From Candidatus Borrarchaeum weybense (GTDB lineage: Archaea; Asgardarchaeota; Sifarchaeia; Borrarchaeales; Borrarchaeaceae), in assembly GCA_019057385.1 (NCBI GenBank), contig JAHQJS010000004.1, forward strand, positions 416,001 to 480,000: DNA of 64,000 bases, written 5' to 3'. Under the pieces are notes generated by a model, which saw only the letters and a list, made by a program, of their open reading frames with translations, made no database searches and had not been told where the DNA came from. The translations under genes and the position numbers were made by a program. Positions 3,134-25,444 of this stretch are shown one piece after another; the stretch's first letter is position 1; every line of letters begins with the position of its first letter.

Positions 3134-5468
3134 GGTAATAAAGAACGGGAAATATAGCGTAACAGAAACTGGACAATGGGCAAGTCAATTTCTATTAAAG
3201 ACCAGCGATGCAAAGAAGATCCACAAATTTCTCCAGACACAGTATTTTTATTCAGAAGACGACGCTTGTAAAAAACTGGCGACTCTTATAAGTGAGAGTG
3301 TCCGTGAGAACGATAATTCGCGATATAGAGCGCAACAATATGAGTTGTTCATATTATCTTTAGTAGAAGGGTTCGATATTGATGAGGCAGCGGAAAACGC
3401 TCGGATGCGACAAGGGGATGCCGAAGGGTGCAGAAGAACTGCCGCGTGGATTGCAGAGGCAGTTAATGCCTACGTTGGAAAGAACATTCCGAAGATCGCG
3501 GAAATGGCAGAAGGAATTAGTGAAGCGCTTACCGTAGATAAAAGAAGGGAAATAGGACCTGGGGTGCGAAGTTATGCAAAAGAGAAACCCTCGTCATATC
3601 CAGGTATTCAAAAAACAATTTGTTCTGTTATTAATCAATTAGGAATTTGCACATATGATGCGATCCATAACATAATTACTGACAAATATGGTGAGTCAGT
3701 AGATCGAACGACAACAATTTGGAACATCCTTGATTTAAGGGCGAAAGACGAAGTTATAACTTTATCAAGAGGCAAGGGAATAGGGCGTCCCGTAATCCAT
3801 GTGTGTAAAAAGGGAATGAATGTACCTGAACATATGCGCAAGACTTGCGGATCCTGTGTATTTTACATATCCTGTGACGATGATGAAAAAGAACGAGACA
3901 ATCAAAGATTTATCTGTGAACTGCGAAGGGAATGCAACAAGCGCGTGGAAAAAAATATTGTAAGCACGTACGTTACGAGCAATATGGGTGCGTGTAAATA
4001 TCATAATTCGTCTCAAGAGCGAAAAAGACGAAGTTTTCGTAAATTTGAGAGGACAGACACAGGCAAACCTATCTGCCAAATTTGTAAATCGGATGCCGTT
4101 AAGGAACCAACCGCTTATGATCACTACACCATATGTTCCAATTGTAATTCACAGTATTACTACCTTTGCGACGGCAGGTTCAGTGTTCAGCCAGGTGTCA
4201 GAGATTTATTACAGCAAGCATTAGAAGAAATCTATGGAAAGTCCGTTAAACCTGTTAAAAGGTGTGCAAAACTAGAGGGTTCTTTAGATCGGCAATACGT
4301 TGAATTAACCATTAAGAAAGGGGATGCAGCTCATATTGACCAAAATAAACTCATTTATATTCCAAAAGAGGAGAAGACACGTTCTTATTTGTTAGATGCC
4401 ATTGAATGTGTTAGAGTGCTTGACGGTGCATATATCACGCCTTATGTATATGAGAAACTCGATGACAGAATTTTATCTGGCAAGAATGTGAATAGACCGC
4501 CAAACGCTTCCTTTGAAGGGTATATAAACATACCTGACGTGCACAATCAACTGAAAGAACGTATACAAGAAATTCGAGAGCAAGAAGTTGGTTTGGCATT
4601 GGCGAGGATACTTATAATGGGTAAGAAAATGAATAATGCAATTCTTACTCTGCAAGCTGGTGAGGAGGGATTACTGTGCCCAGTAGATGCCAGCAGGTTA
4701 TTTTTCAAACAAATGAATGTTGTCGCCCATACTATCATGTATTGGACGGGAAATAGAGAAAATCTGCTCAGTTTCGAGGCGGTTGGCGAACGATACGCAT
4801 GGAAAGCAATTAAACGCGCCTTGAAGGATACATCTATGCGCTTTGAAAATCGTACACAGGAACGATATATCTTTTCGGTTCCCTATATCGGCAAAGTTAG
4901 GGCACGATCTCCCTTTAGTGCAGGACTTAATGCCATTTATCGCCGTGTCCTCGAAATATGTAGAGAGGTGCTTTGCGAAAAAGGATTCTCTTGGTTTCCT
5001 GGCGAACTCGTACTCCATTATAGAAGAAGAAAAGACCAACAAATCCCCATTGGAACAGCTCTTGATTTCCGAGAGTTGTTTTTGGCACTGTTCAGATTCA
5101 CTTATATGAAAGCGTGCAAGAAGGATCAAATTAGGAATACAGATTTTGTACTGTCAAGTACATCTCGCGAGGAAAAAGTATATACCCTTACATACGAGGC
5201 AGAGGATAAAGTTAGAGACTTAATCGAAAGCGTCATGAATAAAGAGGTATATTATCTTGGAAAACAGATGTCACTTTGGAAAGCAATGAAAGAATGCGCA
5301 CGTTCACTTCGCAACTTTTTATTAGAGGGATCTAAATTTATTCCTTTTGTCTGCGCATTAAATGAGGAGCAATTTAAAAAGATTTTAAAGACTTTCCAAA
5401 ATATAGAGAGGTTTTGTGGACCTTCAGGTAAAGGACCTCCTGTTTCAATGTTTGATATCTTATCATAA
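3123..5468 (+). CDS. cas1: Multidomain Cas1-family integrase: Hel308 C-terminal region + wHTH + Zn fingers + Cas1 domain (~4290-5350)
   Basis: Hel308 tail (SVTETGQWASQFLL; GDAEGCRRTAAWIAEA); CxxC pairs; Cas1 motifs in order: ALARILIMGKKMN, LLSFEAVGERYAW, RFENR, PFSAGLNAIY, VLH, ALDFRELF, terminal ARSLRNFL..FIPF. Confidence 0.85.
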   Translation: MQSKVIKNGKYSVTETGQWASQFLLKTSDAKKIHKFLQTQYFYSEDDACKKLATLISESVRENDNSRYRAQQYELFILSLVEGFDIDEAAENARMRQGDAEGCRRTAAWIAEAVNAYVGKNIPKIAEMAEGISEALTVDKRREIGPGVRSYAKEKPSSYPGIQKTICSVINQLGICTYDAIHNIITDKYGESVDRTTTIWNILDLRAKDEVITLSRGKGIGRPVIHVCKKGMNVPEHMRKTCGSCVFYISCDDDEKERDNQRFICELRRECNKRVEKNIVSTYVTSNMGACKYHNSSQERKRRSFRKFERTDTGKPICQICKSDAVKEPTAYDHYTICSNCNSQYYYLCDGRFSVQPGVRDLLQQALEEIYGKSVKPVKRCAKLEGSLDRQYVELTIKKGDAAHIDQNKLIYIPKEEKTRSYLLDAIECVRVLDGAYITPYVYEKLDDRILSGKNVNRPPNASFEGYINIPDVHNQLKERIQEIREQEVGLALARILIMGKKMNNAILTLQAGEEGLLCPVDASRLFFKQMNVVAHTIMYWTGNRENLLSFEAVGERYAWKAIKRALKDTSMRFENRTQERYIFSVPYIGKVRARSPFSAGLNAIYRRVLEICREVLCEKGFSWFPGELVLHYRRRKDQQIPIGTALDFRELFLALFRFTYMKACKKDQIRNTDFVLSSTSREEKVYTLTYEAEDKVRDLIESVMNKEVYYLGKQMSLWKAMKECARSLRNFLLEGSKFIPFVCALNEEQFKKILKTFQNIERFCGPSGKGPPVSMFDILS

Positions 5469-5703
5469 ATACAATTCACTTTTTGCTCTCTTTTTCGACT
5501 TGGATTAATTTAGACCATCAACCTCTTCCTTTTGGTTCTCTAAGAAATGCTTCTTCTTGGTGAAAAACCTAACTAAGAATAAATTTGATTCAATGTTTAT
5601 TTAAATGAAAAGAAGAACAAGAAAGGTTTTTTCCTCCATCTCCAAAGACATAGATAAAAACGTTACTAGATCGCTTATTTTTACAAAAGGAGTTCATAAA
5701 ATA

Positions 5704-5750
5704 ATCCGTTATACAAAAAGCGTTATTTAAAAACCGCAATGCTTATATAC
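5704..5750 (+). promoter_or_regulatory. Archaeal promoter (BRE + TATA), copy 1, upstream of cas7-like gene
   Basis: TACAAAAAGCGTTATTTAAAAACCGCAATGCTT, identical in copy 2 (6771-6817). Confidence 0.7.
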
Positions 5751-5782
5751 TCGGTTGCAAAGGTATATTTGAGGTTTTCAAA

Positions 5783-6598
5783 ATGAAAAAAACTAAGAAA
5801 CAGATCAATGTTCATGCCTTCACTCCTATTGCGAAACCGATCAATACCTCCATACAGAAAAATTCCACTATGCTTCTTTTGGGAGAAATTCCGTATGTCA
5901 ATGGATCGAAAACATTTACTACCAAGCTGTATTATCTCAAAGGTTTGCGAGGAATGCTGAGGCATGCCTGCATGGACTTAGCACGTGCTTACGATATCGA
6001 GGTCTGTCACAGTTCTGAAAAGACTGAACTCAGGGATGGGACAAAACTCGTCTCGCAAGGGTTTCATCCGCTGGGTGCCTGTGATCCTCCCTGCATTCTG
6101 AGGCGTATCTTCGGTACGTTCAGAGAAGACTCCCGCATTAGTGTTTCCGCCGATCCCATCACTTCTATCAGCCATAAGGAATACATTACCGAAGTTCCCG
6201 TCCAAAAAGTTCATATCGCCAGTGAAAATAGGATTGCTCTTTCCTATGACAGGATCCCCATACAAGACTTTAGACAATCCTATTTTTCAGGTTACTTTAC
6301 CTTTTCCATTGATGCCACCCAATTGACCGATGATGAGATTAAATTTCTCTTGGAATCGCTGTTGCATATAGAGTACTATGGTGGTGGCAGAAGTGCGGGC
6401 TATGGTCATGTCAAAATTCTAAATGTTGAATTGCTGCACATAACAATCGAAAGAAAATTTGAATCTGAGAACGGAACTCTGAAAGTCGTTGAAGAGGAAA
6501 AAGTAACTCCGCTAGAACTTGATACTCTCGATGACTGGACGGAAAGTATATCCCTATCTGCACTGACACAAGAACTAGAATTGATGGATGGGGAGTGA
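5783..6598 (+). CDS. cas7: Cas7-group RAMP protein
   Basis: N-terminal strand + TPI; LKGLRGMLRHA; Cys cluster VCH..GACDPPCILRRIFG; ENRIAL; Gly-rich loop YGGGRSAGYGHVKI. Confidence 0.85.
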   Translation: MKKTKKQINVHAFTPIAKPINTSIQKNSTMLLLGEIPYVNGSKTFTTKLYYLKGLRGMLRHACMDLARAYDIEVCHSSEKTELRDGTKLVSQGFHPLGACDPPCILRRIFGTFREDSRISVSADPITSISHKEYITEVPVQKVHIASENRIALSYDRIPIQDFRQSYFSGYFTFSIDATQLTDDEIKFLLESLLHIEYYGGGRSAGYGHVKILNVELLHITIERKFESENGTLKVVEEEKVTPLELDTLDDWTESISLSALTQELELMDGE

Positions 6599-23540: not shown

Positions 23541-24524
23541 CTATTCAATAAAATCAGTTAGATTTATTTCAACCGCTGAAATAACAGTGGTTACCTTTAC
23601 AGTATTCGTTAGGTTTTCGTCTATAATAAGTCCCCAGATGACTTGAACATTTTCATCAAGTTCATTTACGACATATTGAGCGATTTCTTGCGCTTCCTTA
23701 AGTGTAAGATCGTGACTACCTGTAATATTGACAATAGCACCTTTAGCATGAGAGAGGTCAACATCGATAAAAGGAAATTCCATAGCAGTTTGTACGGCTT
23801 CTGTTACGCGTTTTTCTCGGTTTTCTTCCTCTGATACACCTCTCCAGATTATTGAAATACCTGTCGGTTTTTTACTTAATGAAAATAGTGTTCTTAAATC
23901 AGCTAAGTCTACATTGATTCGTCCTGGCGTTGCAACCAATTCAACGATGGCTAAAACACCATTAATAGCTAAATCATCTGCTAGTCGAAATGCATCCTCT
24001 AAAGATGAGTTTGGAGCGATTTTCAAGAGTTTCTCATTCGGGATTACGATAATTGCGTCAGTAACCGTCATTATCTCCTCTAAAGCAGTTAAAGCGAAAT
24101 CCATACGCCTTTTTCCTTCCACATCGAACGGAAGAGTTGAAATACAGATGGTCAAAATACCCTTATTTTTAGCAATTTGTGAAATTATTGGAGCAGCACC
24201 TGTGCCTGTTCCTCCTCCTAATCCGACAATTAAAAAAACGATATCTGCTTGAATATGATTTCTAATTTCAGAGATACTTTCTTTTGCAGCCGCTTTTCCT
24301 CTTTTTGGATCCTTTCCAGCACCTAATCCTTTGCAAACTTGCTTACCAATTGCAAGCTTTGTATCACAAGTTGTATTGTGGAGATTTTGGACATTGGTAT
24401 CTATTCCCAGTGTTCTCAGTGCTGGAACATTATCAAAGAGACCGTTTTCACTTAACCGCGTTATTATATGATTTCCAGCACCACCCACTCCAACAATTAA
24501 GATACTAGGTATAAGTTCTGTCAT
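23541..24524 (-). CDS. ftsZ: Cell division protein FtsZ
   Basis: GVGGAGN, GLGAG, GLGGGTGTGAAP, PFDVEG, INVDLAD. Confidence 0.93.
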   Translation of the reverse strand: MTELIPSILIVGVGGAGNHIITRLSENGLFDNVPALRTLGIDTNVQNLHNTTCDTKLAIGKQVCKGLGAGKDPKRGKAAAKESISEIRNHIQADIVFLIVGLGGGTGTGAAPIISQIAKNKGILTICISTLPFDVEGKRRMDFALTALEEIMTVTDAIIVIPNEKLLKIAPNSSLEDAFRLADDLAINGVLAIVELVATPGRINVDLADLRTLFSLSKKPTGISIIWRGVSEEENREKRVTEAVQTAMEFPFIDVDLSHAKGAIVNITGSHDLTLKEAQEIAQYVVNELDENVQVIWGLIIDENLTNTVKVTTVISAVEINLTDFIE

Positions 24525-24558
24525 ATCCTTCTATCCTTAGCAGAATCTAGATTTTTTG

Positions 24559-24616
24559 TTAAAAACAGTAATGTGGTATCAATAATATTAAAAACAGTAA
24601 TGTCATATCAACAAAA
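24559..24616. repeat. 29-bp imperfect tandem repeat upstream of ftsZ
   Basis: TTAAAAACAGTAATGT..TATCAA twice. Confidence 0.75.
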
Positions 24617-24736
24617 GTAACATTGCCGTATTAAGATAGAAACTATCTATACGCATCAAGCATGATAACAGTTGCTTTCGCAACCTTTTTAATCAAATGT
24701 AATTACACAAATACAATTATTTTAAGGACTTGTTCA

Positions 24737-25098
24737 GTGACATCCTCCCCATCCCTTCGGATAGGGCTTCCAGCTTTCCACTGTAGTTCTCGCTCCCTCA
24801 CGGGAGGCGACGCTTCGCCACTGTCACTACATCTATGGGCTTACGGAAACTTACCAGGTTGCACACGCTGCTCACCCTTATCCTGCCCCTTCCTTATCTG
24901 CCTGAAGAGTGCTATTAATCTTTTACCTGTCTGTCCGACAGGTTAGCACACTGCACACACTAAGGGGACTCTCTTGCCACGCTGGATAAGACCTCATGCA
25001 CGGGCATCCTCACGTTTAGCCCTGTCACAAACTGACTGGTTGCTTACAGGAGGATATGCCTCCACCCAGTCGGGCATTACGGGTACACTCACGGTACC
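24737..25098 (-). ncRNA. ~360-nt structured ORF-less element ending in an IS200/IS605 right-end / TnpB omega-RNA-like motif
   Basis: Minus-strand end GAAAGCTGGAAGCCCTATCCGAAGGGATGGGGAGGATGTCAC; many stems; GC-rich island; TATA at 25121-25128 (-). Confidence 0.7.
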
Positions 25099-25157
25099 AT
25101 ATATAGAGGTTCCGAGTAACTATAAAAAGCCATCGTATTTCGTCATCGTATAAAGTT

Positions 25158-25196
25158 AAAATAAAATAAATAAAATAAAATAAAATAAAATAAATA
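25158..25196. repeat. (AAAAT)n microsatellite
   Basis: About 8 units read directly. Confidence 0.85.
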
Positions 25197-25255
25197 GTAT
25201 ACAAAGATCCATGCTTATCGATTGGTGAAAGACTTAAACATGAGAGAGGATTTTA

Positions 25256-25444
25256 ATGGTAGAATTCAAGAAAGTGAGATCAGATTTCATAAGAATGGCA
25301 CGCCTCGCAAAAAAGCCTTCAAGAAAAGAATTTTGGCTTAGCATCAGAATTAGCTTACTTGGCATGGTTGCTATAGGTCTTATAGCGTTTATAATTAAAC
25401 TTATCTTCACTTTGGTAGTTGGTTTTACACCTCCGACAGCCTAA
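25256..25444 (+). CDS. secE: Protein translocase SecE/Sec61-gamma
   Basis: RLAKKPSRKEF..GLIAFII; upstream of spt5. Confidence 0.92.
   Translation: MVEFKKVRSDFIRMARLAKKPSRKEFWLSIRISLLGMVAIGLIAFIIKLIFTLVVGFTPPTA

Follow-up and report, generated by a model that had tools for sequence, protein, structure and literature searches.

A probably immobile, gene-less IS200/IS605 mini-transposon with a putative guide-RNA scaffold, from a family conserved among Asgard archaea, in Candidatus Borrarchaeum weybense

The window, i.e. the whole 64-kb stretch of DNA that was analysed, harbours an island of 50-52% G+C in a genome of about 37% G+C. The island occupies intergenic DNA between divergent genes, on the upstream side of an ftsZ-like gene, which lies on the minus strand (23541-24524) and encodes the domains Tubulin/FtsZ and FtsZ_C. 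Two small features were observed in the neighborhood of this gene. A direct repeat of ACATTACTGTTTTTAA (24560-24603, minus strand), with two units about 28 nt apart, is positioned just 5′ of the ftsZ-like gene and may be a promoter or operator repeat. A short GAAA-loop hairpin, GGTTGCGAAAGCAAC (24671-24685, minus strand), lies between the island and the ftsZ-like gene and is kept in all five genomes of the genus; it may be a regulatory or terminator element and has no relation to the transposon. The island itself is a whole mini-transposon copy of 419 bp on the minus strand (24737-25155), with the target or transposon-adjacent motif TTTAA in its left flank (25156-25160, minus strand). A first-pass annotation of the window had placed an orphan RNA at 24715-25128. 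An RNA body of about 362 nt is indeed contained in this region, but the element reaches as far as 25155, with a left end that is degenerate.

The boundaries of the window copy were set by empty sites in two congeneric genomes (G004 and G002) and by the abrupt loss of similarity at both ends of the copies. The first base of the copy is the C directly 3′ of TTTAA and its closing bases are ...GATGTCAC. Its flanks adjoin each other in all four congeneric genomes (G001, G002, G003 and G004). The empty sites of G004 and G002 read ...TTCTAA|TGAACAAG... (in a longer form ...TTATTCTAA|TGAACAAGTCC...), whereas the filled site consists of ...TTTAA, the element and TGAACAAG. The insertion 3′ of TTTAA was thus seamless and left no target-site duplication, which is a signature of IS200/IS605 elements. 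TTTAA or a one-base variant of it was found 5′ of every copy in five genomes, such flanks being counted at 14 copies. Judged from these empty sites, the window copy was inserted recently and is specific to the genome of the window; precise excision in four congeners would be the less parsimonious alternative. The four congeners do contain the element at other sites, although the window locus is empty there. The left flank of the window copy furthermore carries a (TAAAA)7.8 microsatellite (Tandem Repeats Finder; 25157-25194, plus strand) that overlaps the TTTAA target. The four congeners possess a single unit at this site, indicating that the (TAAAA)7.8 or (ATTTT)n array expanded in the lineage of the window, beside a copy that lacks the left-end hairpin.

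In the other copies the left end has a length of 52 nt and includes a subterminal hairpin, GGGAAGTCYCCTTCC-GAAA-GGRGGGGGA, followed outwards by the boundary that TTTAA precedes. The left end of the window copy (25129-25155, minus strand) is degenerate and measures 27 nt. According to the copy alignment it is 25 nt shorter than the others, and the arms of the hairpin are missing from the window copy only. This shortening and the expanded array in the flank are the two private changes of the window copy. TnpA of the IS200/IS605 family requires both subterminal hairpins, as established for IS608 and ISDra2, and since the left one is missing the window copy is probably immobile, i.e. a stranded insertion. 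The promoter is retained. A TATA-like box, TTTTTATA (25121-25128, minus strand), is kept in all copies and lies 23 nt ahead of GGTACC (25098-25093), as described in the first-pass annotation, which had considered it to be the RNA's own promoter. However, a TTTTATAG box is also encountered 3′ of the left-end hairpin in tnpA-tnpB and tnpB-only elements, where it is located 5′ of the genes, and the resident tnpA element agrees with the mini-element in its left-end hairpin, in the TTTTATAG box and in being flanked by a TTTAA-type motif. The promoter is therefore one that is built into the IS left end.

The structured non-coding RNA body comprises about 362 nt (24737-25098, minus strand) and resembles an omega-RNA scaffold. 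All seven stems given in the first-pass annotation are present and are part of the RNAalifold consensus, namely GACTGG/CCAGTC (25071-25066 / 25039-25034), GGAGG/CCTCC, CTTATCC/GGATAAG, CCCCTT/AAGGGG, GTGCTA/TAGCAC, ACCTGTC/GACAGGT and CTCCC/GGGAG. The fold of the single sequence is modestly better than that of shuffled sequences (z = -2.5). For the 3′ domain two families contributed 24 sequences, in the alignment of which 89% of the cells are paired, compared to 40-49% when the partners are slid. Both sides are changed at nine pairs, and the hairpin CUCCC-GUGA-GGGAG shows covariation at four of its five pairs. The covariation score exceeds those of all 500 shuffles, a control that ignores relatedness, so that such figures are supportive and are not probabilities. 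An alignment of the whole RNA was built from 16 sequences covering three subfamilies, namely the long and the short forms of the genus and family f12. Here, 93.7% of the cells are paired versus about 42% in the slid controls, 12 pairs are compensatory, and the interior helix 6 covaries at five of eight pairs. The slid controls, as well as loops that vary while stems are conserved, agree with the covariation. RNAalifold additionally predicts that GUGACA (25023-25028, minus strand) pairs with the terminal UGUCAC (24737-24742). This helix, GUGRCA/UGUCRC, would close the scaffold just 5′ of the guide and has modest support: the G084 copy shows one compensatory change to C-G, and wobble changes occur at several pairs.

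The genus-specific part of the RNA is an insert of about 67 nt in a hairpin loop (24897-24963, minus strand). Neither the short subfamily nor family f12 possesses it; both have a small CCCC-TGAATA-GGGG hairpin at the place where the insert is found in the long form, to which the window copy belongs. The insert contains the module CTAACCT-stem-AGGTAAAAG..AATAG, or more generally CTAACCT-stem-AGGTAAnAG..AATAG (24912-24946, minus strand). What the first-pass annotation had regarded as an unusual 5′ extension of about 230 nt is the conserved core of an RNA family with this insert, and it is not peculiar to the window copy. In intact members the RNA has a length of about 290-360 nt, and its fold is conserved across Asgard families.

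At the right end we identified a subterminal hairpin, CCCTATCC-GAAG-GGATGGGG (24747-24766, minus strand), that shows compensatory changes within the family and is identical at about 18 of 20 positions to the hairpin of one group of resident tnpB elements (cluster C, see below). In the window copy this hairpin is maintained by a compensating change. The RNA and the element both end at 24737 with ...GGGGAGGATGTCAC, an end already noted in the first-pass annotation, and are followed by TGAACAAGTCC; the similarity among all aligned copies stops exactly after TCAC. The annotation's assignment of this end to the IS200/IS605 type is borne out by the resident elements, since the right ends of tnpB clusters A-D read CAGGAAGCC-hairpin-GGTAGTTCAC and that of the mini-element reads CTGGAAGCC-hairpin-GGAGGATGTCAC, each followed by the flank, with the layout CWGGAAGCC-hairpin-...TCAC in common. 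A scaffold that stops at the right-end boundary is in the hallmark position of TnpB guides. The would-be guide is thus the flank, of which the first 16 nt are TGAACAAGTCCTTAAA (24721-24736, minus strand), and it is identical to the sequence to the right of the empty site in the congeners. The first-pass annotation had advised a search for guide targets; in the own genome the sole match at up to one mismatch is the window site itself. Other matches in this genome have two to three mismatches each and none of them is located 3′ of TTTAA, and the flanks of the other copies likewise have no close second-site match in the own genome. A guide that equals the insertion-site flank and lacks a second match corresponds to canonical transposon-retention biology and not to domesticated targeting.

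The RNA is no orphan. In the own genome, which comprises 4.18 Mb on 8 contigs, a DNA search retrieved six full copies that are 89-91% identical, one shorter variant and five solo hairpins. Their divergence of 9-11% speaks against a recent burst. The element has a size of about 420-445 bp and contains no genes, and the copies other than that of the window extend 5′ beyond the TATA box through the full 52-nt left end. Subterminal hairpins, which are imperfect palindromes, occur at both ends of the family consensus, and terminal inverted repeats are lacking; the window copy retains only the one at the right end. No coding gene was found inside the element, the longest overlapping ORF on the same strand having 59 aa and running out past the left end. 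Moreover, a blastx comparison of all copies with the 41 resident TnpB sequences revealed no tnpB coding remnant (best E = 0.25, which is noise). The 64-kb window contains neither tnpA nor tnpB, as stated in the first-pass annotation, and the non-autonomous element that the annotation had offered as its alternative proved to be the right choice: multicopy, gene-less and with IS200/IS605 ends, the element is almost certainly a PATE-like, protein-free and non-autonomous IS200/IS605 transposon. The solo hairpins have a length of about 45 nt (contig 4:817183-817221; contig 6:90731-90769 and 740464-740502; contig 7:213987-214025 and 708208-708246) and begin with TTTAAC and the first bases of the left end, to which a single hybrid hairpin and ...GGGGAGGATGTCAC are joined. 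In appearance they are recombinants between the similar hairpin repeats of the left and right ends, comparable to solo LTRs, or minimal mobilisable elements.

Proteins that could act on the element are encoded elsewhere in the genome. As recommended in the first-pass annotation we searched it for TnpB and obtained 41 matches to the TnpB zinc ribbon; a single gene for a Y1 transposase (tnpA) is present. The TnpB sequences form the clusters A (n = 13), B (n = 11), C (n = 7, including the tnpA-linked one), D (n = 3) and E (n = 2). Cluster C encodes TnpBs of 414-436 aa and consists of one tnpA-tnpB element (contig 7:194100-195885) and six tnpB-only copies. Clusters C and B are flanked by TTTAA(C), and the left end of cluster A is different. 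The right-end hairpin of the mini-element is nearly equal to CCCCATCCG..AGGGTGGGG of cluster C, and a CTCCC-loop-GGGAG hairpin together with GAGRACT is found just 5′ of the right end in both. Cluster C proteins contain the domains HTH_OrfB, OrfB_IS605 and TNB and match ISDra2 TnpB structures with E = 3e-15. At the second catalytic motif (RuvC) they have G-D/E-L, for example in the gene at contig 7:194597-195880, whereas the other clusters have x-E-x-L, so that activity of cluster C is plausible but not certain. One cluster C TnpB (contig 8:169403-170647) shows a Q at the motif and a broken zinc-finger cysteine (CWMYGK) and is probably decayed. The two TnpB-like proteins of cluster E (contig 4:1265105-1266742 and contig 6:738268-739908) are larger than the rest with about 545 aa, and their downstream regions have no common GGAAGCC-hairpin-GGTAGTTCAC right end.

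A further tie to cluster C is the module within the insert. The 12 genome-wide matches to its pattern (0-0.7 expected) all fall into copies of the mini-element or into the tnpB genes of cluster C, each of the seven genes being matched; this test of exclusivity is partly circular, the pattern having been derived from these copies and cluster C. In the cluster C genes the module lies in the TNB-coding part, about 300-345 nt 5′ of the right end, and displays the same fold with different stem sequences. Even so, the restriction to these two groups is striking and links the long form of the RNA with cluster C, to which the matches are strong at the level of motifs. Searches of the own genome with a covariance model (E = 0.2) and with nhmmer (E = 0.08-1.7) gave weak matches at tnpB right ends, which are suggestive by position but no proof. 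A global alignment of the element with the last 425 nt of cluster C tnpB was not significant (score 137 versus 116 +/- 9 for shuffles, with a maximum of 139). Taken over HMM, covariance model and global alignment, no homology to tnpB-embedded RNA could be demonstrated beyond the module and about 75 nt proximal to the right end. Likewise, cluster C tnpB genes revealed no conserved GTGAAC partner of the terminal GTTCAC that would mirror the closing helix. None of the sites with the right-end motif of the mini-element in the own genome is situated at a tnpB 3′ end; the sole tnpB within 4 kb of such a site is encoded on the opposite strand at a distance of about 0.6 kb, the site being a solo hairpin. 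On balance we think it rather probable that the RNA acts as a functional omega RNA for a resident TnpB, most likely that of cluster C. It would then represent the stand-alone form, which is defined precisely by the missing adjacency to tnpB.

The element is not restricted to the genome of the window. Elements of this build, from the left-end hairpin and TATA through the structured interior to the right-end hairpin and TCAC, were recovered at 87-93% identity from all four congeners, and a diverged family with the target TTAC(A) is represented by at least 41 fragments in a genome from another family of the class (G005). The latter genome is a 2-Mb MAG in which many fragments of this sister family are located at contig ends, indicating that the repeat breaks the assembly. 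The left end of this ORF-less sister family (e.g. L023:1716-2125) resembles that of cluster A tnpB elements. Using a covariance model of the 3′ domain, the family was matched in 14 of 151 sampled genomes and in six of 27 sampled families of the phylum, including f4, f8, f12 and f13. The distant matches that were inspected (L079-L084) are ORF-less elements with a left end, TATA, RNA and right end. An exact-pattern scan of GTDB species genomes detected the 5′ core in Asgard MAGs only, apart from one chance match. The records belong to Ca. Borrarchaeum yapensis, Ca. Sifarchaeum marinoarchaea, Ca. Hermodarchaeum yapensis, Promethearchaeota and Odinarchaeota. The chance match, in a Geminicoccaceae MAG, is the sole one outside the archaea; it lies inside G+C-rich sequence with no element around it and was rejected.

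None of the pattern matches in Asgard MAGs places the 5′ core at a tnpB 3′ end. The lone TnpB match nearby is a separate tnpB downstream of one copy. In a record of the congener Ca. Sifarchaeum marinoarchaea (L098, 6873 nt) the region 4292-5837 contains a mini-element, a gap of about 140 nt and a cluster C-like tnpB on the same strand, i.e. tandem insertions. Neither in the genomes searched nor at the inspected copies of relatives was a tnpB-linked version of the RNA found, and every inspected case of the RNA lies in an ORF-less element.

Metatranscriptomes provide a weak hint of expression in relatives. Four metatranscriptome runs from four wetland and sediment studies yielded contigs that are 85-99% alike to the RNA body and cover 24734-25075 only, leaving the flanks uncovered. 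These contigs are assembled, stem from copies of relatives and may contain DNA, and their ends near 25060 are uninformative on transcript ends. The word shares in sediment and wetland RNA libraries are small (0.05-0.16). For the organism of the window, transcription, binding by TnpB and cleavage are inferred from sequence.

As the best explanation of these observations, and a fairly probable one, we propose that the locus holds a PATE-like copy that was moved by TnpA, whose RNA is read by a TnpB in trans and which is now probably stuck. The single resident Y1 TnpA would excise and insert the element as single-stranded DNA 3′ of TTTAA, and transcription from the promoter in the left end would run across the scaffold and the right end and continue into the flank. 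The readthrough product would be an omega-RNA with the adjacent host sequence as its guide. A TnpB encoded elsewhere could then bind this RNA in trans and cut emptied or naive sites consisting of TTTAA and the flank, which would favour retention of the element. The best candidate for this TnpB is that of cluster C with its 414-436 aa, because left end, right-end hairpin and TTTAA target are in common. The window copy was inserted recently and later lost its left-end hairpin; promoter, scaffold and right end were kept.

Other explanations have to be weighed against this one. An RNA of about 360 nt that forms a G+C-rich, structured island behind a TATA box in an A+T-rich archaeal genome is reminiscent of a housekeeping RNA, and the first-pass annotation had itself brought up RNase P and SRP RNA. 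However, models of RNase P RNA (RF00373) and SRP RNA (RF01857) gave no match at E = 10 in 24500-25300, whereas the true genes lie on other contigs (RNase P RNA at contig 5:351144-351523 with 207.9 bits, SRP RNA at contig 3:11011-11326 with 168.6 bits), and the element is multicopy, so that this identity can be practically dismissed. In Rfam searches the whole window had no match at gathering thresholds, and region 24500-25300 had three chance-level matches at E <= 10. This also bears on the idea that the RNA is carried as cargo and serves a purpose unrelated to TnpB guidance: it might be a ribozyme or resemble an intron and thereby free host transcripts of the element, or it might guide a different effector. 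The size of the RNA and its multi-helix junctions would fit, as would the fact that the RNA family was never found beside a tnpB 3′ end and that its core has no detectable homology to tnpB-embedded RNA except for the right end and one module. Nevertheless we hold such a cargo to be improbable, given that no Rfam family, including group I and II introns and small ribozymes, was matched above chance level at E = 10 and that the RNA stops precisely at the right-end boundary with the tnpB-like layout CWGGAAGCC-hairpin-...TCAC. A related and equally doubtful possibility is that the conserved RNA is an independent, ancient "RNA-only" lineage of Asgard transposons whose core does something other or more than guiding a resident TnpB. 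If true, the RNA might for example be catalytic or self-excising, or a guide for an unrecognised effector, and its activity would involve the closing helix formed with the TCAC cleavage motif.

Two further readings concern the function of the interior and the fate of the window copy. The element might be a plain MITE or PATE whose interior is carried between functional ends without any RNA function, the stems being signals in single-stranded DNA or chance. The first-pass annotation had named numerous scattered, untranscribed copies as the mark of a plain MITE; as regards copy number, scattered copies do exist, and they have typical IS200/IS605 ends; the copies are also fairly diverged and the hint of expression is weak. 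But TnpA needs the subterminal hairpins alone, and yet interior helices covary (five of eight pairs in helix 6, and CUCCC/GGGAG), six Asgard families have retained the core and differ in the peripheral loops, and the promoter is kept in every copy. An interior without RNA function is thus unlikely. The first-pass annotation had favoured a domesticated guide RNA, which would make the window copy an immobilised guide-RNA gene whose product acts in trans and leads a TnpB-like protein to a target in the host or in foreign DNA. In line with this, the left-end hairpin is lost in the window copy alone, with promoter, scaffold and right-end hairpin kept, and the copy sits upstream of an ftsZ-like gene. 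However, the locus is empty in all four congeners and the copy hence young, its guide is the insertion-site flank and matches nowhere else in the genome at up to one mismatch, and its scaffold is indistinguishable from those of the mobile copies, of which there are several. Domestication therefore appears highly improbable, and we regard the window copy as a stranded member of a family of IS200/IS605 mini-transposons that carry a guide RNA only and are conserved in Asgard archaea.

The guide RNA (omega RNA or reRNA) of ISDra2- or IS605-type TnpB is embedded in the 3′ end of tnpB. The Asgard element resembles this arrangement in that the guide starts at the right-end boundary, a subterminal hairpin lies at the right end, the scaffold is rich in stem-loops and the target motif equals the insertion motif. 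It differs by the lack of an overlapping tnpB ORF, by a separate predicted transcription start and by a longer scaffold, the 5′ core of which occurs in none of the tnpB genes searched. With the cluster C elements it has in common the TTTAA target, the left-end hairpin with the promoter, the right-end hairpin (about 18/20), the CTCCC-loop-GGGAG hairpin, GAGRACT and the CTAACCT...AGGTAAAAG...AATAG module. Unlike the mini-element, cluster C elements are protein-coding, have a size of 1.4-1.9 kb and end with the tail GGTAGTTCAC instead of GGAGGATGTCAC.

Gene-less IS200/IS605 elements of the PATE type were described from Geobacillus stearothermophilus by Meers et al. (2023, bioRxiv 10.1101/2023.03.14.532601), according to whom PATEs "often encode omega RNAs" for use in trans by the TnpB of other elements. 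Like these, the Asgard element is gene-less, has ends akin to those of resident tnpA/tnpB elements and an RNA scaffold adjoining the right end, and is presumed to be mobilised by TnpA and used by TnpB in trans. Unlike these, it has an Asgard archaeal host, a TATA-type promoter inside the left end and a scaffold of about 290-360 nt that is not a simple deletion derivative of the 3′ region of a resident tnpB, and it forms an ORF-less lineage that is conserved across several families. Stand-alone omega RNAs that are mobilised without an effector or transposase exist according to Altae-Tran et al. (PNAS 2023, PMC10691335), who state that they were shown to work in trans. These, too, are mobilised guide-RNA loci with compatible effectors in the genome; the difference is that the function in trans was shown by experiment for those RNAs, whereas here the partner TnpB is deduced by comparison. 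A publication on circular archaeal omega RNAs (PMC12558985) contains no mention of PATE, MITE, non-autonomous, in trans or promoter. Stand-alone omega RNAs and PATEs bearing omega RNAs have therefore already been described, and the Asgard element fits that kind.

The current picture of these systems is unchanged by our analysis, and the window copy is without a sign of domestication. For annotation the finding means that G+C-rich "RNA islands" in such genomes are transposons and not housekeeping RNAs. It is also of value for the mining of compact pairs of TnpB and omega RNA, since the RNA can be defined here free of overlapping coding sequence. What is added is a conserved Asgard family of guide-RNA-only mini-transposons with a defined target, TTTAA, a promoter, a fold supported by covariation and a candidate TnpB.
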